From: an uncultured Candidatus Methylacidiphilales bacterium
Lineage (GTDB): Bacteria > Verrucomicrobiota > Verrucomicrobiia > Methylacidiphilales > CALFVM01
Direction of reading: 5' to 3'
DNA length: 17,113 nt
NCBI GenBank assembly: GCA_937928665.1
Contig: CALFVM010000270.1
Coordinates: forward strand, 1 to 17,113
Made by a program: the position numbers and the translations under genes. Within the stretch, counting starts at the first letter, position 1; each line of letters begins with the position of its first letter. Positions 4,008 through 17,113 of this stretch are shown here, piece by piece. Below the pieces are notes generated by a model. That model made no database searches and was not told the DNA's origin. It saw only the letters and a list, made by a program, of their open reading frames with translations.

Positions 4008-6098
<2,091 letters not shown>

Positions 6099-6644
6099 TC
6101 AATTTTCCGCCGCACCAATCACCATCGCACGGAACGCCGCCTCGGCCTCACCCATGGCGGTGGCCGGACCCGTCATCCGCACAAAAACGTTTCCCCCGGC
6201 TCCCTCAAGAATCGCCCCCAACAACACCGTGTCCGGCACCGGCGTTGTCGGACCTCCCGGCATTCCGCTCGCGTAAGTCCCGGACGCACGGACAAAGGTC
6301 ACCCTGTTCCCGCCGATTTCTTCGGTCTCGACCTTCTCTTCTTTCCGGTCGCTCACCTGGCCCAGCCAACGCGCCACGTTATCCTGGGCCGAGCCGCCCT
6401 GGCCCGGGCCAAAAAAGAAAAAGACCGCCTCCCCCTTCCCATCCGGCGAACGAAGTTCGGCCTTCCGCATCGGGGAATCAGGGACCCGGTGCGCCCAGCC
6501 CTCCGGAACCGCGAAGCGGAACGGTCCGACCTGAAAGGCTTCTTCCGCTCCGTGGACCCGCCCTCCGAAAGCCACCAGCATGGCGGCTCCCAGTGCCATC
6601 CACCTATTCCGCCGCGTCCAAACCAAACCGCTTGCTCCATTCAT
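6099..6644 (-). CDS. Hypothetical small secreted/periplasmic protein
   Basis: Start chosen at the ATG at 6644, preceded by GGAGG plus a 6-nt spacer. N-terminus MNGASGLVWTRRNRWMALGAAMLVAFGGRVHG|AEE looks like a signal peptide (basic n-region, hydrophobic core, small-residue c-region). G-ending codon usage resembles neighbouring genes. An alternative start (MALGAA, 6599) would avoid the 41-nt overlap with the upstream gene. No recognisable domain. Confidence 0.5.
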   Translation of the reverse strand: MNGASGLVWTRRNRWMALGAAMLVAFGGRVHGAEEAFQVGPFRFAVPEGWAHRVPDSPMRKAELRSPDGKGEAVFFFFGPGQGGSAQDNVARWLGQVSDRKEEKVETEEIGGNRVTFVRASGTYASGMPGGPTTPVPDTVLLGAILEGAGGNVFVRMTGPATAMGEAEAAFRAMVIGAAEN

Positions 6645-6831
6645 CAACAACCTCCACACGGATGAGAGAAAGCCGCTCATAATCCCGTTCGACCTGGTCC
6701 TCCGTCCATCGCGGGTGAGAATCCCGGATGATCTGCAGGGTCCAGGCGCGGGCGATTTCAATATCGCTGCGGGTCAGCCGGGTGACCGCACGCCGATAAA
6801 GCAGGTCGTTAAATCGGCTGGTGACTTCCAT
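6604..6831 (-). CDS. Hypothetical small protein (about 75 aa)
   Basis: MEVTSRFNDLLYRRAVTRLTRSDIEIARAWTLQIIRDSHPRWTEDQVERDYERLSLIRVEVVDEWSKRFGLDAAE. Codon usage looks typical downstream of this ATG and turns to rare-looking codons (AGG/CGA/CTA/ACA) upstream, so I trimmed the 131-aa track ORF. RBS is weak and there is no recognisable domain. Confidence 0.35.
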   Translation of the reverse strand: MEVTSRFNDLLYRRAVTRLTRSDIEIARAWTLQIIRDSHPRWTEDQVERDYERLSLIRVEVVDEWSKRFGLDAAE

Positions 6832-6932
6832 CAAACGCACGCCCCGGAGCTTATCCGGTCGGAACCCATCGCGCAAGGCCCGTGCCGGATGCCCTTTGAC
6901 AACCCCGCTTACCCGGTCTAGCTCTGCCTCGC

Positions 6933-7310
6933 ATGTCCGATCCTGTCCAACTCCGCCACCGGGCCGAACGGCTCCTGGTCGATTTGGCCTCCCGATCACG
7001 GGCCCGACCCGGGCTGTTTCCTGTCCGCCACGTTGAGGATTTTCTGGCCATCATCGGCGACCGCCTCGGCTGGCAACCCGGCACCACCCTGGCTGACACA
7101 TCCGATTCGGCTGCCCTCTCCGCCTTCTGCGACCTCGCCCGCCAACTCGATTCCCATCCCGAACAATCCCATCACTGGTTCGCGTTAAGCCAGCTCCGGC
7201 GAGGCTTCCCTCCCCTTCACGCAGCCGCCTCTCCCGTCCCACCCGAGACTGAGGCAGCCCGGGATTCGTCCCTCAAACACGCCGTCCACCCAAAAACAGT
7301 CCGGCCGTAA
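6933..7310 (+). CDS. Hypothetical protein (125 aa)
   Basis: The only sizeable ORF in the 500-nt gap between the minus-strand genes ending at 6831 and 7334. It is C-ending codon-rich, especially in the first half. No homology recognised. It could be spurious. Confidence 0.3.
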   Translation: MSDPVQLRHRAERLLVDLASRSRARPGLFPVRHVEDFLAIIGDRLGWQPGTTLADTSDSAALSAFCDLARQLDSHPEQSHHWFALSQLRRGFPPLHAAASPVPPETEAARDSSLKHAVHPKTVRP

Positions 7311-7333
7311 GGCTCCCGCTACTCTCCCGCCGG

Positions 7334-8650
7334 TCAATCCCAAGCCGTGTCCGGTTCGAAATCCCGGATATATTGAACCCCGACCAACGCCCGCCGGATC
7401 GTGCTCCCATCCAGCAGATGGCGCATATCCAAAAACCTGCCCGCATCGATCACCCGCTGCACTTCCGCCTCCACCCGCCCCGGCGCTTCAGCCAGTGGCA
7501 ACGGGTCAAACACCACCGCATGATTGTGCAGCATCTCCGTCTGCGACCCCGTATTGGCCGGGTTCACATAAAAGGTGGCCTTCAGACTGGCCTGATCGAA
7601 AACCCCCAGATCACACGTCAAATCCAGCCCCGCTCCCGTCAACAGCCCCGTGATATTCCGGTGCCGCGGCGTCCGGTCCGCCTCAAACCACTGCGGGTAA
7701 TTGGACGGATCGGTAATCGGCAAGCCATTGGCCGGAGCAAAACGAGCGATCGGCGCTTTCACCACCCCGGCACCCAGCAACGCCGGCATCTCCGCCACCA
7801 CGGCCAATCCCAGCGCCCCCCGGAACGTCGGCCGCCGGGCCTTGGCAAAATCAAACAACACCCGGTAAAGCCCGCTGATCGTCAGGCCCGTCTCCGCATC
7901 CGCCGCCCGCACGTCGGCATAATCATGGAACGGGCCGGGCAGCGAAGCATTGAAGCCGGTCCGGATGGTCACCTGCCCCCGGTCATGTCTTGGAATCAAG
8001 TAATCCGGCGTGTCATTCCCATCCGTCGGCAGCCACACCATCGTCCCCGCCATTGTGATCATCTCCCCCATCAGCGGCAGACACGCCTCTACCGATGAGC
8101 CCAGGGCACCCAGCCCGATCGAATACGCGGTCCCGGAAAAAGATTTCGACCGCACCTCCGCTTCCGTGATCCGCGCCGCCAGGACATCCTTGATGTCTCC
8201 GGCAATTCGAATCACGGCCTCTCCTTCCTCAGCGGGCAGAACCCGAATCTCCGCCGTGCCAGGCACTACCCACCGCTCCGCCCCGCTCCAATCCAACTCA
8301 ACAGGCTCTCCCTTCACCCCAGAACCCGCCACCAGATCGTCCAACCCCGCCATATCCAGCACCTCCGCCACGTAGGGCCGAAGATTAACCAAAAGCAACT
8401 CGTGCCCCGCCGCCCGTTGGCCTTTCCAGGCCGTCACCAAAACCCGCACCCCTGCGGAACTGAGATAATCGACCCCGCCAAAATCCAGCGTCAACAGCTC
8501 CGGCCCCGAGGCCACCGCCGCACGAATCACCGGCTCCAACTCACCCGCCCCATGCGCGTCAAGTCGCCCCTCAAGCCGATACATCATTTGGTGCGGACCG
8601 GAACCGGAATCAGAAACAACTTTAAAGGGCATCCACTGAGGTTGCCCCAC
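7334..8650 (-). CDS. STAS-domain (anti-sigma-factor-antagonist-like) protein fused to a ~330-aa C-terminal domain of unknown function
   Basis: N-terminal ~110 aa: ...YRLEGRLDAHGAGELEPVIRAAVASGPELLTLDFGGVDYLSSAGVRVLVTAWKGQRAAGHELLLVNLRPYVAEVLDMAGLD. That is a SpoIIAA/STAS-like pattern (pre-established contrast, DxxxV..SSAG, short inhibitory tail). The GTG start at 8650 follows GGAGGG plus a 6-nt spacer; an in-frame ATG lies at 8633. The remaining ~330 aa have no motif I recognise. Confidence 0.7.
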   Translation of the reverse strand: MGQPQWMPFKVVSDSGSGPHQMMYRLEGRLDAHGAGELEPVIRAAVASGPELLTLDFGGVDYLSSAGVRVLVTAWKGQRAAGHELLLVNLRPYVAEVLDMAGLDDLVAGSGVKGEPVELDWSGAERWVVPGTAEIRVLPAEEGEAVIRIAGDIKDVLAARITEAEVRSKSFSGTAYSIGLGALGSSVEACLPLMGEMITMAGTMVWLPTDGNDTPDYLIPRHDRGQVTIRTGFNASLPGPFHDYADVRAADAETGLTISGLYRVLFDFAKARRPTFRGALGLAVVAEMPALLGAGVVKAPIARFAPANGLPITDPSNYPQWFEADRTPRHRNITGLLTGAGLDLTCDLGVFDQASLKATFYVNPANTGSQTEMLHNHAVVFDPLPLAEAPGRVEAEVQRVIDAGRFLDMRHLLDGSTIRRALVGVQYIRDFEPDTAWD

Positions 8651-8729
8651 TTCGCACCCTCCGACAAGGTTGCCGACCGACCCACGCCTTCCTTGTCCTC
8701 CACCGACTCCCCCCGTTAATGTTTCCCGG

Positions 8730-10037
8730 ATGCCCGCCGAAAAACCTCAACCCTCAGACGGTGCTCGCGCCGCCGTGGGCGTCCTCCTTGTCGGCCTCCT
8801 GGCCGCAGGCGCGGCTGAGAGCTTCGCCGGTGCCATTGACCTGATCTACACCAACGGAATCGAGCGCCTGGCCGCCCTGCCCCTCCCCTGGTTTCTGGCC
8901 GGTTCCTTGTTCATCGTTCTCTCCACCAGCGCGGCTGCCGGCTGGTTGATGTTCAAGTTTTGCCCGGAAGCTGCCGGCAGCGGCATCCCCCAAGTCAAGG
9001 TCGCCTACCTCGAAGGCCGGAACGGCATCCCCTTCCGCATCGTCTGGGTCAAGTTCCTCGCCGGTGCCCTCAGTATCGGCGGCGGCGCCAGCCTCGGGCG
9101 CGAAGGCCCCACCGTTCAAGTCGCCGCCGGACTGGCTTCCTGCCTCGCCCGCCACCTTCCCGCCTTCCGCCTCTCCCAGGGTGCCGCCCTCGCCGCTGGC
9201 AGCGCCGCCGGTTTGGCCGCCGCCTTCAAAGCACCCCTCTCCGCCGGAACCTTCTTCCTCGAGGAAATCGCCGGAGAACTCAAATCCCCATTCGTCTGGG
9301 CGGCCCTTCTTGGAGCCATCGCCGCCTCCGTCTTCCTCCGGGAATCCCTCGGCCAGTTGGCCGAAATCCAGATGGCCCCGCTCCGTGCGCCCGAGGGCTG
9401 GACCTGGCTCTGGATGATCCCGGTCGGGGCCCTCGCCGCCTTCATCGGCATGATTTTCCAACGGGGTGCTCTCGCCCTGCGCGGACGGGTTGCCGGCAAG
9501 CTTCCGGTCCCGCGCTGGACTCTGCCCATCTTCGGCGGAACCGCCACCTGGCTCCTCGGCGTCTCTGTCTTCATCAACACCGGACACCTCGGCGTCTTCG
9601 GACTCGGCTACCCCGACATGCTGGCCGCCCTCCACGGCGAAATCCTCTGGAACGCCGCCGCCCTTCTCGTGGCGGCCAAGCTCCTCGCCACCATCGCCAG
9701 CTACGGCCTCGGCGGTTGCGGCGGCATCTTCTCCCCGCTCCTCTGCCTCGGCGTCCTCACCGGCGCAGCCGCCTGCGGCGGCATCACCCTCGTCCAACCC
9801 CTCTCGCAAAACGACGCCACCGCCCTCATGCTCGTCGGCATGGGCGCCTGCATTGGTGCCGTCCTCCGCGCCCCGCTCACCTCCATCCTCATCGTCTTCG
9901 AAATGACCCGCGAGGCCCAAATGCTCCCCGGCCTGATGCTCGCCACCCTCGTTGCCCAGACCATCGCCCGCGTCATGGCCCGCGAGAACTTCTACGCCGC
10001 CCTCCTCCGCCAGGACGGCCATCCCCTGACCCAATAA
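8730..10037 (+). CDS. ClC-family chloride channel / H+-Cl- exchanger (EriC-like, no CBS domains)
   Basis: About 10-12 hydrophobic helices with ClC signature motifs GSGIP (AAGSGIPQVK), GREGP (gating-Glu position) and GGIFSP (GxFxP). I chose the first ATG (8730, MPAEKPQ...). The TTG at 8670 in the ORF track would leave only 19 nt for the divergent intergenic region. Confidence 0.85.
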   Translation: MPAEKPQPSDGARAAVGVLLVGLLAAGAAESFAGAIDLIYTNGIERLAALPLPWFLAGSLFIVLSTSAAAGWLMFKFCPEAAGSGIPQVKVAYLEGRNGIPFRIVWVKFLAGALSIGGGASLGREGPTVQVAAGLASCLARHLPAFRLSQGAALAAGSAAGLAAAFKAPLSAGTFFLEEIAGELKSPFVWAALLGAIAASVFLRESLGQLAEIQMAPLRAPEGWTWLWMIPVGALAAFIGMIFQRGALALRGRVAGKLPVPRWTLPIFGGTATWLLGVSVFINTGHLGVFGLGYPDMLAALHGEILWNAAALLVAAKLLATIASYGLGGCGGIFSPLLCLGVLTGAAACGGITLVQPLSQNDATALMLVGMGACIGAVLRAPLTSILIVFEMTREAQMLPGLMLATLVAQTIARVMARENFYAALLRQDGHPLTQ

Positions 10038-10143
10038 GGGTCAACCCGCCTCCAACCGTCCTGTGACAATCCGGTTGCGTGCAACAACCCGCTTGTCACT
10101 CACCCCTCTGCGCCACAACCTACCCGCTCACCCCGAAAAAAAC

Positions 10144-10148
10144 AGGAG
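10144..10148 (+). promoter_or_regulatory. Shine-Dalgarno AGGAG for the flotillin-like gene
   Basis: aaacAGGAGcttccc-ATG: a 6-nt spacer to the ATG at 10155. It is one of the few clear SD sequences in the window. Confidence 0.5.
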
Positions 10149-10154
10149 CTTCCC

Positions 10155-12140
10155 ATGTCACTGCTCGATCTCTTCAACCTCGCCATGATCGCCGCCGGCA
10201 TCATCGTTGCCCTCGTCGTCCTCTTTGTCATCGTCCGCCTTCTCTTCGCCTACGGCTTCCGCAAGGTCGATCAGGGCCAGGCTCTCGTCCGTAACGGCGT
10301 CGGTGGCACCCAGGTCTCCTTCTCCGGCATGGCCTTCTTCCCCGCTTTCCACGTCCTTGAAATCATGGATATCTCCGTCAAACGCGTCGAAATCGACCGC
10401 GGCGGAGCCACCGGCCTGATCTGCCGTGACAACCTCCGCGCCGACATCAAAGTCGCCTTCTTCGTCCGCGTCAACAACACCACCGAAGACGTCAAGCGTG
10501 TCGCCCAAACCATCGGCTGCGCCCGCGCCTCCGACATCAAAGCACTCGTCGAGCTCTTCGACGCCAAATTCTCCGAAGCCCTCAAAACCGTCGGCCGCCG
10601 CTTCGACTTCGTTGACCTCTATAACTCCCGCGAAAAGTTCAAAGAAGAACTCCTCCAAATCATCGGCACCGATCTCAACGGCTACACCCTGGACGACGCC
10701 GCCATCGATTACCTTGAACAAACCAAAATCGAACTCCTCGATCCCGAAAACATCCTCGATTCTGAGGGGATCAAGAAAATCACCGATCAGACCGCCCAAC
10801 AAAAAATCCTGACCAACCAAATCAACTGCGACCGGGAAAAAACCATTACCCAGCAGAACGTCGAAGCCCGCGAAGCCGTGCTTGAACTCGAGCGCCAGCT
10901 CGCCGAGGCCGAACAAAAACAACAGCGCGAAATCGCCGCCATCAAGGCCCGCGAAGAAGCCGAAACCGCCAAGGTCCAGCAGGAAGAACGCCTCAAATCC
11001 GAACGCGCCCGCCTCATCACCGAGGAAGAGGTCAAAGTCGCCGAAGAAAACCTCCAGCGCCAGGTCATCGTCGCCCTCCGCAACAAGGAGCGGACCGACG
11101 CGGTCGAAAAAGAACGGGTCGAAAAAGACCGCCTCCTCGAGGTCAACGAGCGCGAGCGCATCGTCACCCTCGCCGAAATCGAAAAAGAAAAAGCCATCGA
11201 GACCGAGCGCAAAGAAATCCAGGAAGTCATCCGCGACCGCGTCATGGTCCAGAAAACCGTCGTGGCTGAACAGGAACGGATCAAAGACACCGAAGCCTTT
11301 GCGGAGGCCGACCGTATCCGCCGCGTCAAAATCACCCAGGCCGAAGCCGAGGCCGATGCCCTCCTCGTCCAGGAAATCAAAGCCGCTGAAGCCGCCAAAA
11401 AAGCCGCCGAACTCAAAGCCCAACAAGAAATCATCGAGGCCGAGGCCCACAAAGACGCCGCCACCCTCGCCGCCGAAGGTAAAAAACAACTCGCCGAAGG
11501 CGTCACTGCCGAGACCGCTGCCCCCGGCCTAGCCGAAGCCCACGTCCTCGAAGCCAAAGCCCAAGCCGTCCGCGAGCAGGGCACCGCCGAGGCCGACGTC
11601 CTCCGCGCCAAAGCCGCGGCCGAAGCCGAGGGCATCACCGCCAAGGCCGAAGCCATGAAACTGTTCGACGGCGTCGGGCGCGAACATGAAGAGTTCAAAC
11701 TCAAGCTCAACGTCGAGCGCGACCTCCGCCTCGCCGAAATCCACATCCGCAAAGACATCGCCGAACAGCAGGCCGCCGTCCTCGGCGAAGCCCTCCAAAG
11801 CGCCAAGATCGAAATCATCGGCGGTGAACACCAGTTCTTCGACCGGATCGCCAACGCCGTGGGCACCGGCAAAACCGTCGACCGCCTCTTCGACCACAGC
11901 GGCATCCTCTCCTCCGTCCATGAGACCTTCTTCAACGAAGATCCCGACGCCTTCAAAACCCAGCTCCGCCGCCTCGTCGATCAATTTGGCCTGGCCAGTG
12001 AAGACCTCAAAAACCTCTCCATCGCCGGAGCCATCGGCCAGCTCCTCGCCCGCTCCACTGACGAATCCCAGCGCACCCAGCTCCGGCACCTCTCCGCCCT
12101 CGGCCAAAAACTCGGACTTCTCCAGCAGCCCGCCGCCTAA
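10155..12140 (+). CDS. Flotillin-like SPFH/band-7 domain membrane protein (YqiK/FloT-like)
   Basis: N-terminal TM helix (MIAAGIIVALVVLFVIVRLLF) and an SPFH-like domain (KVDQGQALVRNGVGG...FFPAFHVLEIMDISVKRVEI...IKVAFFVRV). A ~300-aa Glu/Ala/Lys/Arg-rich coiled coil with EA repeats and a C-terminal globular tail follow. This is the flotillin architecture. Confidence 0.85.
   Translation: MSLLDLFNLAMIAAGIIVALVVLFVIVRLLFAYGFRKVDQGQALVRNGVGGTQVSFSGMAFFPAFHVLEIMDISVKRVEIDRGGATGLICRDNLRADIKVAFFVRVNNTTEDVKRVAQTIGCARASDIKALVELFDAKFSEALKTVGRRFDFVDLYNSREKFKEELLQIIGTDLNGYTLDDAAIDYLEQTKIELLDPENILDSEGIKKITDQTAQQKILTNQINCDREKTITQQNVEAREAVLELERQLAEAEQKQQREIAAIKAREEAETAKVQQEERLKSERARLITEEEVKVAEENLQRQVIVALRNKERTDAVEKERVEKDRLLEVNERERIVTLAEIEKEKAIETERKEIQEVIRDRVMVQKTVVAEQERIKDTEAFAEADRIRRVKITQAEAEADALLVQEIKAAEAAKKAAELKAQQEIIEAEAHKDAATLAAEGKKQLAEGVTAETAAPGLAEAHVLEAKAQAVREQGTAEADVLRAKAAAEAEGITAKAEAMKLFDGVGREHEEFKLKLNVERDLRLAEIHIRKDIAEQQAAVLGEALQSAKIEIIGGEHQFFDRIANAVGTGKTVDRLFDHSGILSSVHETFFNEDPDAFKTQLRRLVDQFGLASEDLKNLSIAGAIGQLLARSTDESQRTQLRHLSALGQKLGLLQQPAA
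11290..11680 (+). repeat. Low-complexity codon repeats (gcc-gaa-gcc / gcc-gag-gcc) encoding the flotillin Glu/Ala-rich coiled coil
   Basis: Short degenerate tandem repeats of gccgaagcc/gccgaggcc, visible in phrases like AEAEADALLVQEIKAAEAAKKAAELKAQQEIIEAEAH and LEAKAQAVREQGTAEADVLRAKAAAEAEGITAKAEA. It lies inside the CDS and is not a mobile or CRISPR repeat. Confidence 0.5.
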
Positions 12141-12155
12141 GCCGGCCCCCACGCC

Positions 12156-15100
12156 ATGGCCCAGGCGCTCGAAGTCGGCACCTACGAAATCATCCGCGAT
12201 CGGCTCAAAGCCCGCGCGGTTGAACTCCGCGACCGGCTCAAACAACTCAACGCCGCCCGCAAAGAAACTTTCGGCACCCTCGAGTTCAAGCTCCAGCACA
12301 GCGATCGCGTCACTACCGAACACAACTGCACCCCGCGCGACATCGTCGCCCTCGGCTCCGACACCTTCCTCTTTGGCTACAACGTCCAGTTCGGACTCAA
12401 AACCGAAACCGACCTCAGCGACGTCTTCGCCCTTTACGCTTACCAGGACGGCGCCTTCCACCCGCTCCCTCTCGACCTTCTCCGCTCCAACGAGTTCGAA
12501 TCCGACTTCAAAAACCTCTACAAATATTACCGCCACACCACCCTTTCCAAATTCCGCCTCGACGGGCCCCACCTCTACATGGCCTTCCAGGTCGGCAAAT
12601 CCGTCGATGACCTCAAAACGTTTAAGTGGCTCCTCGCCGATGGCCAGCTCACCTACCTCGGCAACCGCTTCGATCACGAGTTCAAGTTCCCGCCCCTCTA
12701 CCAGTTCGACTGGAAACGGGCCACCCGCGACAGCTTCCGCTCCGGCAAACACCCCCACGTCTCGATCGAAGATCAAGTCTTCATCGATACCCTCGGCGGC
12801 ACCCTCACCATCAAAGCCGAGGACAACACCGCCTCGGGCACCGGCCTTTACCAAGAACCCGTCGACAACAAAGACCAGACCCTTGACGACGCTGAAATCT
12901 TCTACGCCCGGCTCGGTCACCTCACCGTCCTGAAAGTCAAACCCTACCAGGAACGCAACTACCGCTATTTCATCTACAACCGTAAAGCGGCTCACGCCGT
13001 CCGCCTCGACGCCCTCGGCTGGTCCTGCGCCCTCCTACCCGAAGATCAGGGCCTTATCTTCCCCGGCGGCTACTACCTCGCCACCGGCGATTACAAACTC
13101 TTCGACGGCGACTTTGCCGACATGATCTTCTCCCGACGCATCGACGCCCCTAATGGCGAGGACTCCCTCTACGTCTTCTATCACCGCGCCACCGGCACCT
13201 ACGCCCACCTCTCCTACAACCGCATCACCCAGACAACCGCCTCACCCCACTTCTGCAACGGCTACGCCCTCTTCCCCTCCGGTCGCATGTTCCTCTTTCG
13301 TGCCGAGCGCGAACCCCAGAAACATCACACCCTCCAAATCTGGCAAACCCCCTACCTCGGTCGCAACGTCGTTCTCGAACCCAAAACCGATTCCTTCCTC
13401 GCCAAACTCGGCAATAGCACCGTCGTCTCCGCCCTCGCCGAAGCCAACGAAATCCTCCACCTCCTCGAACGCGACGACATCTACGACGAACTCTACCTTG
13501 ACCTCGTCCGCCGCACCACCGCCGTCTCCGACGCCTACTTCTGGCTCGGTGATCCCGCCGCCTTCGGCCTCAAGGAAACCCTCCTCGACATCAAGACCGC
13601 CGCCGGAAACGCCCTCGACGAATTCGCCAAAGTCCGCGCCATCCAAAAATCGACCGCCGCCGACATCGATGCCGCCGCCACCGACACCGAAACCGCCCTC
13701 CGCGCCATCGTCCCCCATAACCTCACCGCCATCGACCACTTCGTCGCCCACCTCGCCTCTCTCCGCGGCCTCCGCGGCCGTCTCATCTCCCTCAAAGAGC
13801 TCCGCTACGCCGACCTCCCCCGCATCGAAACCCTCGAACAACGGGTCACCGAAAAAACCGCCGACCTCTCCAATCAAACCGTCGCCTTCCTCCTCGAACC
13901 CGGCGCCCTCGGCCCCTACGAAGAACGCATCGCCGCCGCTCGCGATGCCGTCCCCGCCCTCGCCAAAGCCGCCGATGCCAACGCCCTCGAGGCCGAAATC
14001 GACAACGCCGGGCAGCAACTCGAACTCCTGATCGAAATCGTTTCCAGCCTCAAAATCGATGATTCCACCCAGACCACCCGCATCATCGAAGCCATCTCCG
14101 CCCTCTACGGCACCCTCAACCAAGTCCGCGCCGCCATCAAAAACAAAAAGCGCGATCTTCAGGGCACCGAAAGTGCCGCCCAGTTCGCCGCCCAGGTCAA
14201 ACTTCTCGAACAATCCGCCACCAACTTCCTCGACCTCGCCGATTCCCCCGCCAAATGCGATGAGTTCCTCAGCCGCCTCACCCTTCAGCTCGAGGAACTC
14301 GAAGGCCGTTACACCGACTTCGACGACTACCTCGCCGCCCTCACCGAGAAACGCCAGGAAATCTACTCCGCCTTCGAAGCCCGCAAAGTCCAGCTCCAGG
14401 AAGCCCGCGGCCGCCGCGCCGCCACCCTCGCCGCCTCCGCCGAACGACTCCTCACCACCATCCGTTCCCGCGTCGATACCCTTAAAACCCTCGACGAAAT
14501 CAACGGCTACCTCGCCGCCGACCTCATGGTCGCCAAGGTTCGCGACACCATCGCCCAACTCCTTGACATGGGCGAATCGGTCAAAGCCGACGAACTCCAG
14601 AGCCGTCTCAAAACCCTCCAACAAGACGCCGTCCGCCAGCTCAAAGATCGCCTCGACCTCTTCACCGACGGCGGCAACGTCATCCGACTCGGTGCCTACA
14701 ACTTCACCGTCAACACCCAGCCCCTCGACCTCACCGTCGTCCCCCGAGACGACACCCTCGCACTCCACATCTCCGGCACCAACTTCTTCGAACCTCTCGC
14801 CGACCCCGCCCTCACCACCCTGCGCGACGTCTGGGACCTCGAATTCCCCTCCGAATCCCCCGACGTCTATCGCGCCGAGTTCCTCGCCTTCACCCTCCTC
14901 AACGCCCTCCAAGCGGACGGCCAACTCCCCACCGCCCTCCGCTGGACCGACCCCGAACGGCTCGAAGCCGTCCGCACCTTCATGGCGCCCCGCTACCGGG
15001 AAGGCTACGTCAAAGGTGTCCACGACGCCGATGCCGCCCTCCTCCTCGGCGCCCTCCTCCGTCTCCACCACGACCTCGACACCCTCCGCTTCCCACCCGC

Positions 15101-17113
15101 CGTCCGCGCCCTCGCCCGTCTCGCCTGGGCCTCCGCGCCTCCTGCACGGCGCGACCCCCTCGCCACCCGCCTGACCAACCTCGCCCAGGCCCAAACCGCC
15201 TTTCCCAACGCCCGTCCGGCCCCCGCGCTGGTGGCCGACCTTGAAACCCTCACTACCCACGCTCTGCCCCTCATCGCCCAGTTCACCCCCGACATCTCCC
15301 CCGCCCACGCCGCCGCCTATCTCCTCGCTGAACTCTCCACCCGCCCCCACCTCCTCATCAGCCAGGAAGCCCTCGACCTCGCCACCTCCTTCACCGCATC
15401 CCTCAAAAAGAAACGCGCTTGGGACGACCTCCAGACCGCCCGGCGCAAACTTCAGAAAGAACCCGCCTCCGCCCTCGCCCTGCTTTATCCGTGGCTCGAA
15501 GCCCATCATCGGGAAGAACATCCCGATCTCCCGGCAGACTTCCTCCTGGAAGCCGCTGCCCTCCTCCACCTGGACGCCCTCGATCCCGCCTACCTCCACA
15601 ACGCTTCCCGCACCGCCACCCTCAACGACCTCCACGGCACCCATCCTTGCCTGGCCGAAAAACCCTACCGCCTCGACTACCACGCCTTCATCCAACGGCT
15701 CGCCCGGCACCGGGACGAGCTCGTGCCCCGCTTTGAACAATGCGTCCGAGCCAAACACCATGCCCTCGAACAACGGCGCCGAGACCTCCGCCTCGACGGC
15801 TTCAAACCCAAAGTCCTCACCTCCTTCGTCCGCAGCCGTCTCATCGACGAAATCTATCTCCCCCTCGTCGGTGCCAACCTCGCCAAACAAATCGGCGTCG
15901 CCGGTGAAAACAAACGGACCGACCGCTCTGGCCTCCTCCTCCTCATCTCACCCCCCGGCTACGGCAAAACCACCCTCATCGAATACGTCGCCCACCGCCT
16001 CGGCCTCGTCTTCATGAAAATCAACGGGCCTGCCCTTGGCCAAAAGGTCACCTCCCTCGACCCCGCCGACGCTCCCAACGCCGCCGCCCGCGAAGAAATC
16101 ATCAAGCTCAACCTCGCCCTCGAAATGGGGGACAACGTCCTCATCTGCATCGACGACATCCAGCACTGTTCCTCCGAGTTCCTCCAAAAGTTCATCTCCC
16201 TCTGCGACGCCCAGCGCCGCATCGAAGGCGTCTGGAACGGCCAGCCGCGCTCCCACGACCTCCGCGGCCGCAAAGTCGCCGTCGTTATGGCCGGCAACCC
16301 CTACACCGAAACCGGCGACAAATTCAACCTCCCCGACATGCTCGCCAACCGCGCCGACACCTACAATCTCGGCGACATCGTCGGCACTAACGCCTCCGCC
16401 TTCGAACAGAGCTACCTCGAAAACTGCATCACCTCCAACCCCGTCCTCCAACGACTCGCCGCTCGCGGCTCCGCTGACGTCCGCGCCGTCATCCGCATCG
16501 CCGAAACCGGCTCCCGCGACGGAGCTCGCTTCGAGGGCAACTACTCCCCCGAAGAACTCAACGAGATGGTCGCCGTCATGACCCACCTCGTCGCCGTCCG
16601 CACCATCCTCCTCCGCGTCAACCGCGAATACATCCACTCCGCCGCCCAGACCGACGCGTTCCGCACCGAGCCCCCCTTCAAACTCCAGGGCTCCTACCGC
16701 ACCATGAACCGGCTGGCCGAAAAAATCCTCCCCGTCATGACCCCGCAGGAAGTCGAGGCCCTCCTCCTCGACCAGTACAAAAACGAAGCCCAAACCCTTG
16801 CCACCGGTGCCGAGGCTAACCTCCTCAAACTCCGCGAACTCCTCGGCCTCCTCACCCCAGACGAAGCCGCCCGCTGGGACGACATCAAAAAGAAGTTTCA
16901 ACGCAACCAACTCCTCGGCGGTGCCGGAGAAAACGATCCCGTCGGCAAAGTCGTCGGCCAGCTCGCCCTCTTCCACGAAAGCCTTGAACACCTCCGCGGC
17001 ACCCTCGCCCACGGCTTTGCCCATGCCGCCGAAGCCAACGCCAAAACCGCCGTCACCCTCCCCGCAACTCCCGCCCCAAGCCCCCCATCGGCCACCGCTC
17101 CAACACCCGCCCC
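12156..17113 (+). CDS. Giant multidomain protein (at least 1652 aa, 3' end beyond the window): ~1250-aa N-terminal region of unknown function plus a C-terminal AAA_5/MoxR-like P-loop ATPase core
   Basis: ATG at 12156, 15 nt after the flotillin stop and in the same frame. Manual translation (MAQALEVGTYEIIRDRLKARAVELRDRLKQL...) hits no stop in this frame to the window end, consistent with its absence from the ORF track. Walker A LLLLISPPGYGKTTL is at ~15949-15975, Walker B NVLICIDDIQ at ~16138-16158 and sensor 1 VAVVMAGNPYTE at ~16281-16301 (AAA_5/MoxR/McrB style). The C-terminal Pro/Ala-rich linker (PATPAPSPPSATAPTPA) runs to the window end. The uniform C-ending codon bias matches the flanking genes. 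Confidence 0.75.
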   Translation, partial: MAQALEVGTYEIIRDRLKARAVELRDRLKQLNAARKETFGTLEFKLQHSDRVTTEHNCTPRDIVALGSDTFLFGYNVQFGLKTETDLSDVFALYAYQDGAFHPLPLDLLRSNEFESDFKNLYKYYRHTTLSKFRLDGPHLYMAFQVGKSVDDLKTFKWLLADGQLTYLGNRFDHEFKFPPLYQFDWKRATRDSFRSGKHPHVSIEDQVFIDTLGGTLTIKAEDNTASGTGLYQEPVDNKDQTLDDAEIFYARLGHLTVLKVKPYQERNYRYFIYNRKAAHAVRLDALGWSCALLPEDQGLIFPGGYYLATGDYKLFDGDFADMIFSRRIDAPNGEDSLYVFYHRATGTYAHLSYNRITQTTASPHFCNGYALFPSGRMFLFRAEREPQKHHTLQIWQTPYLGRNVVLEPKTDSFLAKLGNSTVVSALAEANEILHLLERDDIYDELYLDLVRRTTAVSDAYFWLGDPAAFGLKETLLDIKTAAGNALDEFAKVRAIQKSTAADIDAAATDTETALRAIVPHNLTAIDHFVAHLASLRGLRGRLISLKELRYADLPRIETLEQRVTEKTADLSNQTVAFLLEPGALGPYEERIAAARDAVPALAKAADANALEAEIDNAGQQLELLIEIVSSLKIDDSTQTTRIIEAISALYGTLNQVRAAIKNKKRDLQGTESAAQFAAQVKLLEQSATNFLDLADSPAKCDEFLSRLTLQLEELEGRYTDFDDYLAALTEKRQEIYSAFEARKVQLQEARGRRAATLAASAERLLTTIRSRVDTLKTLDEINGYLAADLMVAKVRDTIAQLLDMGESVKADELQSRLKTLQQDAVRQLKDRLDLFTDGGNVIRLGAYNFTVNTQPLDLTVVPRDDTLALHISGTNFFEPLADPALTTLRDVWDLEFPSESPDVYRAEFLAFTLLNALQADGQLPTALRWTDPERLEAVRTFMAPRYREGYVKGVHDADAALLLGALLRLHHDLDTLRFPPAVRALARLAWASAPPARRDPLATRLTNLAQAQTAFPNARPAPALVADLETLTTHALPLIAQFTPDISPAHAAAYLLAELSTRPHLLISQEALDLATSFTASLKKKRAWDDLQTARRKLQKEPASALALLYPWLEAHHREEHPDLPADFLLEAAALLHLDALDPAYLHNASRTATLNDLHGTHPCLAEKPYRLDYHAFIQRLARHRDELVPRFEQCVRAKHHALEQRRRDLRLDGFKPKVLTSFVRSRLIDEIYLPLVGANLAKQIGVAGENKRTDRSGLLLLISPPGYGKTTLIEYVAHRLGLVFMKINGPALGQKVTSLDPADAPNAAAREEIIKLNLALEMGDNVLICIDDIQHCSSEFLQKFISLCDAQRRIEGVWNGQPRSHDLRGRKVAVVMAGNPYTETGDKFNLPDMLANRADTYNLGDIVGTNASAFEQSYLENCITSNPVLQRLAARGSADVRAVIRIAETGSRDGARFEGNYSPEELNEMVAVMTHLVAVRTILLRVNREYIHSAAQTDAFRTEPPFKLQGSYRTMNRLAEKILPVMTPQEVEALLLDQYKNEAQTLATGAEANLLKLRELLGLLTPDEAARWDDIKKKFQRNQLLGGAGENDPVGKVVGQLALFHESLEHLRGTLAHGFAHAAEANAKTAVTLPATPAPSPPSATAPTPA

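Follow-up and report, generated by a model that had tools for sequence, protein, structure and literature searches.

A YqiK-type flotillin gene adjoining a giant AAA+ ATPase gene in a Methylacidiphilales bacterium: probable abbreviated copy of a widespread operon family

Organization of the locus

The DNA analyzed here is a contig of 17,113 nucleotides (nt) from an uncultured Candidatus Methylacidiphilales bacterium (CALFVM010000270.1, assembly GCA_937928665.1), the whole of which is called the window below. Its + strand carries a gene for a YqiK-type flotillin, and 15 nt past the stop codon of this gene an ATG at 12156 opens a frame of 1652 codons, which runs to the end of the window and encodes a giant protein with a beta-propeller, a coiled coil and an AAA+ ATPase module. 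This arrangement on one strand, with an open 3′ end, had been described in a first-pass annotation made from the sequence alone, and its coordinates are confirmed. The locus is very probably an abbreviated copy of a widespread operon family that consists of a YqiJ/NfeD-like gene, a YqiK-type flotillin gene and a giant ATPase gene. The features of the pair are as follows (aa, amino acids; pLDDT, predicted local distance difference test).

10155..12140, +, YqiK-type flotillin gene, 661 aa (open reading frame [ORF] and translation): anchor, SPFH domain, Glu/Ala-rich coiled coil, C-terminal extension
10179..10256, +, N-terminal hydrophobic membrane anchor, aa 9-34 (Kyte-Doolittle 19-residue window maximum 3.26 at residue 9)
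10263..10706, +, SPFH/Band_7 domain, aa 37-184 (Pfam PF01145, E 2e-6, 28.4 bits against a cutoff of 23.6)
11817..12137, +, flotillin C-terminal extension, aa 555-661 (about 105 residues), unaligned to E. coli YqiK, conserved
12141..12155, +, spacer of 15 nt, too short to hold a terminator and lacking a Shine-Dalgarno motif
12156..17113, +, giant beta-propeller/coiled-coil/AAA+ ATPase gene, residues 1-1652 of about 1740, 3′ end beyond the window
12288..13346, +, beta-propeller, aa 45-397, inside Pfam DUF3686 (AlphaFold2, pLDDT mostly 70-86; Foldseek)
13395..14660, +, long helical/coiled-coil region, aa 414-835 (AlphaFold2 helices of 20-58 residues, pLDDT 70-89)
14871..15788, +, all-helical middle domain, aa about 906-1211 (AlphaFold2, pLDDT mostly 80-95; no Pfam family)
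15837..16745, +, AAA+ ATPase module with a helical C-terminal part (AlphaFold2)
15948-15974, +, Walker A, SPPGYGKTT
16137-16166, +, Walker B, VLICIDDIQH, with an invariant Asp-Asp
16215-16262, +, pre-sensor-1 hairpin
within 16281-16304, +, sensor-1 N1381
within 16332-16358, +, candidate Arg finger R1399
within 16677-16709, +, putative sensor-2 R1515 in QGSYR

Since the spacer is too short for a terminator, the two genes are likely to be co-transcribed and their translation coupled. No terminator-like site was found on the + strand in 9900-12400. A promoter scan detected no sigma-70-like site upstream of the flotillin gene, the sigma-70 model being uninformative for this phylum. Homologues of the giant protein have 1700-1800 aa, and therefore about 90 residues are missing from the copy in the window.

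The first-pass annotation had also read the shared, extreme codon bias of the pair as a sign that the genes work together. The numbers are real, with third-position C at 0.63 in the flotillin gene and 0.71 in the giant gene, but the argument fails. The unrelated ClC channel gene upstream has the same bias (0.65), and its mirror image is seen in the STAS gene of the other strand (third-position G 0.54), so that codon bias follows a strong strand-wide skew and is uninformative on co-function. From about 6000 to 17113 the GC skew of the + strand is −0.2 to −0.43, and it is much weaker to the left of about 6 kb.

Conservation of the gene neighbourhood

All ORFs were clustered in 80 species-representative loci of the giant gene, and the flotillin count was restricted to the 67 loci with more than 2.5 kb of upstream DNA. 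Of these 67, 64 have an orthologous flotillin gene (35-59% identical) upstream in the same orientation; they span Verrucomicrobiota, Planctomycetota, Bacteroidota, Desulfobacterota, Kiritimatiellota, Omnitrophota and Clostridia; seven more contigs break within the upstream flotillin gene. The pair was also found on replicons of Pseudomonas, Streptomyces and Deinococcus. The prediction of a conserved, functionally uncharacterised module is thereby borne out.

A YqiJ/NfeD-like protein of about 220 aa is encoded directly 5′ of the flotillin in 56 of the 61 loci with room for it, at a median gap of 15 nt. Its transmembrane (TM) helices are N-terminal, and they are followed by an acidic linker and, at the C-terminus, a small beta domain. 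The protein has a weak Pfam NfeD match, and a hidden Markov model (HMM) of these neighbours matches E. coli YqiJ at E 3.5e-13. The same triad of YqiJ-like, flotillin and giant genes stands on the Streptomyces and Deinococcus replicons. The first-pass annotation had allowed for two or three genes in the module; the third gene does exist in most loci, but it lies upstream, not downstream, and is absent at this locus, where the ClC channel gene occupies its position. Downstream of the giant gene no conserved gene was found, there being no cluster within 1.5 kb of the 3′ end. In the two closest relatives (67-70% identity) the flotillin and giant genes likewise form a pair, with neither a YqiJ gene nor a PspA dyad adjoining, and the genes downstream of the giant gene there are convergent and unrelated. 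No window ORF matched PspA or CesT_Tir. The pair in the window is a two-gene, abbreviated version of the operon, without an adjacent YqiJ gene.

In 17-19 of the 80 loci, all from Bacteroidota, the triad is preceded by genes for a CesT_Tir_1 protein (E 4e-54) and PspA (E 5e-42), and a divergently transcribed gene for a LexA-like regulator (HTH+S24) stands beside these extended loci. Another extended copy is located on the Pseudomonas fluorescens SBW25 megaplasmid pQBR103 (L085; NC_009444.1, 87139-106326), a genetically tractable carrier, on which DUF2491, DUF350, DUF1190 and glutathionylspermidine-synthase genes are followed by the YqiJ-like, SPFH and giant ATPase genes; the upstream genes are those of the polyamine-type PspA operon class of Ravi et al., and a phospholipase D gene lies 9 kb downstream. 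A divergent subgroup of the Pedosphaera/Limisphaerales type (L018, L037, L054, L060, L075) has a flotillin of 35-41% identity and no YqiJ gene, and an ORF of about 290 aa with a coiled coil and a Pro/Ser-rich part, matching no Pfam family, adjoins the 3′ end of its giant gene in either orientation.

Genes found between flotillin and giant genes encode an IS200-like (Y1) transposase, a PDDEXK_3 “GxxExxY” protein, a DUF559 endonuclease-like protein, an AbiEii toxin and lipoproteins. They were considered as a fourth member of the module and rejected as variable insertions. The spacers of L016, L017, L019, L020, L023, L024, L026, L040, L071 and L076 hold independently gained selfish or mobile genes, the operon being otherwise intact.

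Distribution of the giant family

From the 8000 candidates that it scored, a word-indexed search gave at least 2817 homologues of the giant protein at E≤1e-10. Their identity is about 50% across phyla, and their sources include Verrucomicrobiota, Planctomycetota, Desulfobacterota, Acidobacteriota and Bacteroidota. Those that are named mostly carry the NCBI name “DNA repair ATPase”. In a scan with one genome per species, at least 598 stretches were confirmed among the 600 matches listed, and tblastn against records of plasmids and secondary replicons extended the range to Pseudomonas, Vibrio, Photobacterium, Proteus, Halomonas, Streptomyces, Nonomuraea and Deinococcus. The same program, run on 50,697 records of phages, found no relatives.

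An exhaustive HMMER search with the propeller region recovered 702 clusters at 50% identity in 1.84 billion representatives, and all full-length matches have 1590-2036 aa with the propeller at the N-terminus. The small number of clusters indicates low diversification of the propeller domain. With a mean pairwise identity of 0.50 across phyla, the giant family is widespread, has a single fixed architecture and is unusually conserved. The mirror-tree correlation between flotillin and giant protein (r 0.78, with phylogeny uncontrolled) indicates co-inheritance only.

The flotillin

The first-pass annotation had expected a Band_7 domain, and PF01145 was indeed found above its cutoff, whereas the match to the Flot family was below the Pfam cutoff. 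The SPFH/Band_7 domain is the best-conserved stretch in 66 flotillin orthologues, and the anchor at aa 9-34 is the only hydrophobic segment across both proteins of the pair. Together with the coiled coil and the flotillin C-terminal region, these give the flotillin architecture of the operon family. BLASTP aligned the protein with E. coli YqiK over 440 residues (29% identity, E 6e-43), with nothing aligned past aa 450. A PDB sequence search gave zero matches. The C-terminal extension has a majority-residue conservation of 0.42-0.74 over the 66 flotillins linked to a giant gene. As it is unaligned to YqiK yet conserved in the giant-linked flotillins, it is a candidate docking surface for the giant ATPase.

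The giant protein

In most of the giant ORF the first-pass annotation had recognised no motif. However, Pfam places DUF3686 (“ATPase involved in DNA repair”) at aa 23-462 (E 5.5e-171) and DUF7902 at aa 584-666, inside the coiled-coil region (E 2e-26), and two overlapping AlphaFold2 models, for which alignments of 14 phylum-spanning homologues were the input, predict a chain of domains (residues 1-880, mean pLDDT 74.5; residues 836-1625, mean pLDDT 81.8). An N-terminal helix of 38 residues precedes the beta-propeller, for which Foldseek returned the six- and seven-bladed propellers CyRPA, Ycf48, prolyl oligopeptidase, PON1 and DDB1 (E 1e-4 to 3e-3, probability 0.9-1.0). In the second model a small beta unit stands ahead of the all-helical middle domain, which has no recognisable relative. 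The models set the propeller distal to the ATPase module, on a long helical arm. With its beta-propeller, coiled coil and AAA+ ATPase, the giant protein corresponds to the large neighbour that the operon family has beside its flotillin. It has no hydrophobic segment by the Kyte-Doolittle scale and is therefore cytoplasmic. A PDB sequence search matched only about 60 residues around the P-loop, and NCBIfam gave only far-sub-threshold matches to RuvB, PAN, CDC48 and TrlF.

The MoxR-type assignment made earlier holds for the AAA+ module. Pfam finds AAA and AAA_5 around aa 1261-1387, and the core is of the AAA_5/MoxR-dynein-midasin structural type with a complete set of catalytic motifs, structurally closest to CbbQ, NorQ, dynein and midasin. 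Walker A, Walker B, N1381, R1399 and QGSYR do not vary across the ten aligned sequences, which were taken from different phyla. Between beta2 and helix 2 (aa 1291-1308), where a helix-2 insert would be expected, the model shows mainly coil, one short helix and no hairpin (AlphaFold2, pLDDT 70-86). Pfam detects no VWA family and no peptidase family in the giant protein, which has no M41 domain and no TM segment.

Other genes in the window

A thiamine pyrophosphate (TPP) riboswitch lies at 5959-6067 (−), 5′ of thiC (Rfam RF00059, 65 bits, E 5e-11). As it lies inside the mechanical ORF 4008-6095 (−), the thiC start of this ORF is over-extended. Between thiC and the STAS gene are the overlapping ORFs 6099-6761 (−) and 5943-6665 (+) and the ORF 6933-7310 (+), of 220, 240 and 125 aa, respectively, none with a Pfam family. 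The stretch 7334-10037 holds the gene for a 438-aa protein with an N-terminal STAS domain (−) and the ClC chloride-channel gene (+). The two are divergent with about 20 nt between the mechanical ORF starts, and their true starts are probably further in.

Relation to described systems

The first-pass annotation knew of no described flotillin with a giant AAA_5 ATPase. However, the pairing is already in the literature and so is not new: Ravi et al. (mSystems 2024, PMC11237479; bioRxiv 2020) reported the same operon arrangement from comparative genomics. They describe CesT/Tir-PspA joined with three other proteins, including a 3TM YqiJ/YuaF protein, and PspA-less abbreviated operons that are distributed more widely. 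Their account is one paragraph with no counts, structure or experiment, and a supplementary table gives a Dokdonia operon. The flotillin architecture, the giant ATPase architecture and the gene order found here are the same, and the Bacteroidota loci agree with the Dokdonia operon gene for gene. Unlike the extended operons, the window and its two closest relatives have no adjacent YqiJ gene or PspA dyad. Apart from this work, a literature search on DUF3686, PF12458, DUF7902, flotillin with MoxR, and “DNA repair ATPase” with SPFH or flotillin brought up nothing relevant.

The YqiJ-YqiK pair of E. coli and the YuaF-FloT pair of Bacillus subtilis resemble the operon in the YqiK-homologous flotillin and in the YqiJ-family gene that precedes it in most relatives. 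However, E. coli has no giant ATPase gene after yqiK, and the flotillin described here is about 110 aa longer than E. coli YqiK and has the conserved C-terminal extension. HflK/C-FtsH and prohibitin with the m-AAA protease likewise combine an SPFH scaffold and an AAA+ machine at the membrane, but unlike FtsH the giant ATPase is without protease domain or membrane anchor. It differs from the MoxR-family AAA+ chaperones (CbbQ-CbbO, NorQ-NorD, RavA-ViaA) and from the dynein/midasin AAA_5 modules in having a single AAA+ domain that ends a 1740-aa protein, no VWA/MIDAS partner and an Asp-Asp Walker B; its AlphaFold2 model also shows no evident helix-2 insert. The likeness to Vps4 with ESCRT-III/PspA polymers lies in the joining of the operon to PspA in Bacteroidota and Gammaproteobacteria and in the idea of an ATPase that recycles a membrane-bound polymer.

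Proposed function

A 1740-aa ATPase adjoins flotillin in hundreds of species of about ten phyla and is about 50% identical among them. The giant ATPase is almost certainly a working partner of the flotillin. The first-pass annotation had suggested a remodelling or quality-control machine, which is a reasonable hypothesis. We suggest that the most likely function of the pair is ATP-driven remodelling of the flotillin scaffold in a membrane-stress response, a proposal to which we give slightly less than an even chance. The flotillin would be anchored through its N-terminal segment and would oligomerise, like SPFH proteins, to form a cage or a patch at the inner membrane, on its cytoplasmic side. 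The giant protein would assemble into an AAA+ ring, and its coiled-coil arms and propellers would bind the flotillin assembly or the clients held by it, with the conserved C-terminal extension of the flotillin as the candidate contact. Under membrane stress the giant protein would then hydrolyse ATP to build up, remodel or take apart the scaffold. The functional counterpart would be Vps4 on polymers of the ESCRT-III/PspA type, or FtsH inside HflK/C, minus the protease domain. The general idea of remodelling is supported by the SPFH protein YdjI of B. subtilis, which is needed for recruitment of PspA to the membrane (cited in PMC11188069), and by the large membrane-attached cages that eukaryotic flotillins form (PMC11260169). 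A narrower version casts the giant protein as a motor dedicated to the ATP-driven assembly and disassembly of flotillin cages in bacteria, in the form of a MoxR/dynein-like ring whose coiled-coil arms and propellers extend to the scaffold; we regard it as possible but tentative. Taken as a whole, the explanation that joins the abbreviated operon copy to scaffold remodelling is evenly balanced.

Several observations weigh against it. In all ten phylum-spanning sequences Walker B has Asp-Asp (IDDIQH) in place of the usual Asp-Glu, and hydrolysis may for this reason be slow or switch-like. The giant gene has no flotillin gene nearby in 3 of the 67 loci, and in 23 of 71 loci the spacer between the pair exceeds 500 bp and contains unrelated small genes, so that strict co-translation is not required. 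A YqiJ-like gene was not found in the window by tblastn with 56 sequences, and six-frame translations of the window (best E 5.6) and of L084 gave no match to an HMM of the 56 YqiJ-like neighbours. No VWA/MIDAS gene stands among the conserved neighbour clusters of the 80 loci, and the literature search found no experimental work on any member of the operon family.

The giant protein could instead be a MoxR-like chaperone for another membrane complex, whose client, encoded elsewhere, it matures or provides with a cofactor, the flotillin being a localisation platform only. The closest structures to the core are indeed CbbQ and NorQ, responsible for the maturation of Rubisco and nitric-oxide reductase, along with dynein and midasin, and flotillins are thought to be platforms for other proteins (Ravi et al., PMC11237479). 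However, no VWA/MIDAS adaptor or candidate client gene is conserved nearby, and the only constant partners are the flotillin and YqiJ. MoxR-type ATPases usually work with a VWA/MIDAS partner. We consider the chaperone role unlikely.

A defence role, which the first-pass annotation had raised, found no support in PADLOC or in the phage records. An anti-phage or conflict system would use the propeller to sense invasion, with flotillin and YqiJ as effectors or platform, for example in abortive infection by membrane damage. Defence systems often contain large NTPases of several domains that carry repeat sensors and have membrane partners, the module is found on megaplasmids, selfish genes including the AbiEii toxin gene lie between the pair in some loci, and there are weak PADLOC matches to LmuB (E 9e-7). 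However, the matches in PADLOC-DB 2.0 are partial (LmuB, 26.5 bits, coiled coil only; IetA, 29 residues at the P-loop); the flotillin has none and there is no match to any defence ATPase head. The absence of relatives from the phage collection, the identity of about 50% across phyla, the fixed gene order and the low diversification are unlike the fast-evolving, patchy defence genes, and the conserved neighbours are stress genes (PspA, CesT/Tir and the LexA-like regulator), not defence islands. This role is thus improbable.

The name carried by the homologues and the title of DUF3686 would make the giant protein a true DNA-repair ATPase of the SMC/Rad50/SbcC kind, with the flotillin link incidental or serving to tether DNA to the membrane. 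Its long coiled coil is weakly similar to LmuB and TrlF, and weak RuvB-family matches cover the P-loop. However, these reach about 20 bits against cutoffs of 282-299, the only ATPase domain of the protein is of the AAA+ type and lies at the C-terminus, in place of an ABC head shared by both termini, and the N-terminus is a beta-propeller. There is no nuclease, helicase or DNA-binding domain in the protein or its conserved neighbours, the conserved partners are membrane proteins, and no paper supporting the name was found. The name appears to be without basis and probably arose from SMC/LmuB/TrlF-type similarity of the coiled coil only and RuvB matches at the P-loop; a function in DNA repair is very improbable. 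That the pair stands together by accident in this genome and the genes are independent, as the window without a YqiJ gene and the three loci without flotillin might suggest, is refuted by the neighbourhood count, in which the pair retains its order and common strand in 64 of 67 loci, spread over at least seven phyla, and is scarcely conceivable.

Significance

The YqiK/FloT class of bacterial flotillins has no established enzymatic partner. If the giant protein is the dedicated motor of flotillin cages, bacterial flotillins would have an enzymatic cycle analogous to that of Vps4 on ESCRT-III or NSF on SNAREs, and there would be a direct experimental handle on their function. Characterising the giant ATPase could reveal whether flotillin scaffolds undergo active building and dismantling and how they are linked to the membrane-stress response of PspA. 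It would also correct the misleading name “DNA repair ATPase”, which is now spreading through thousands of annotations.

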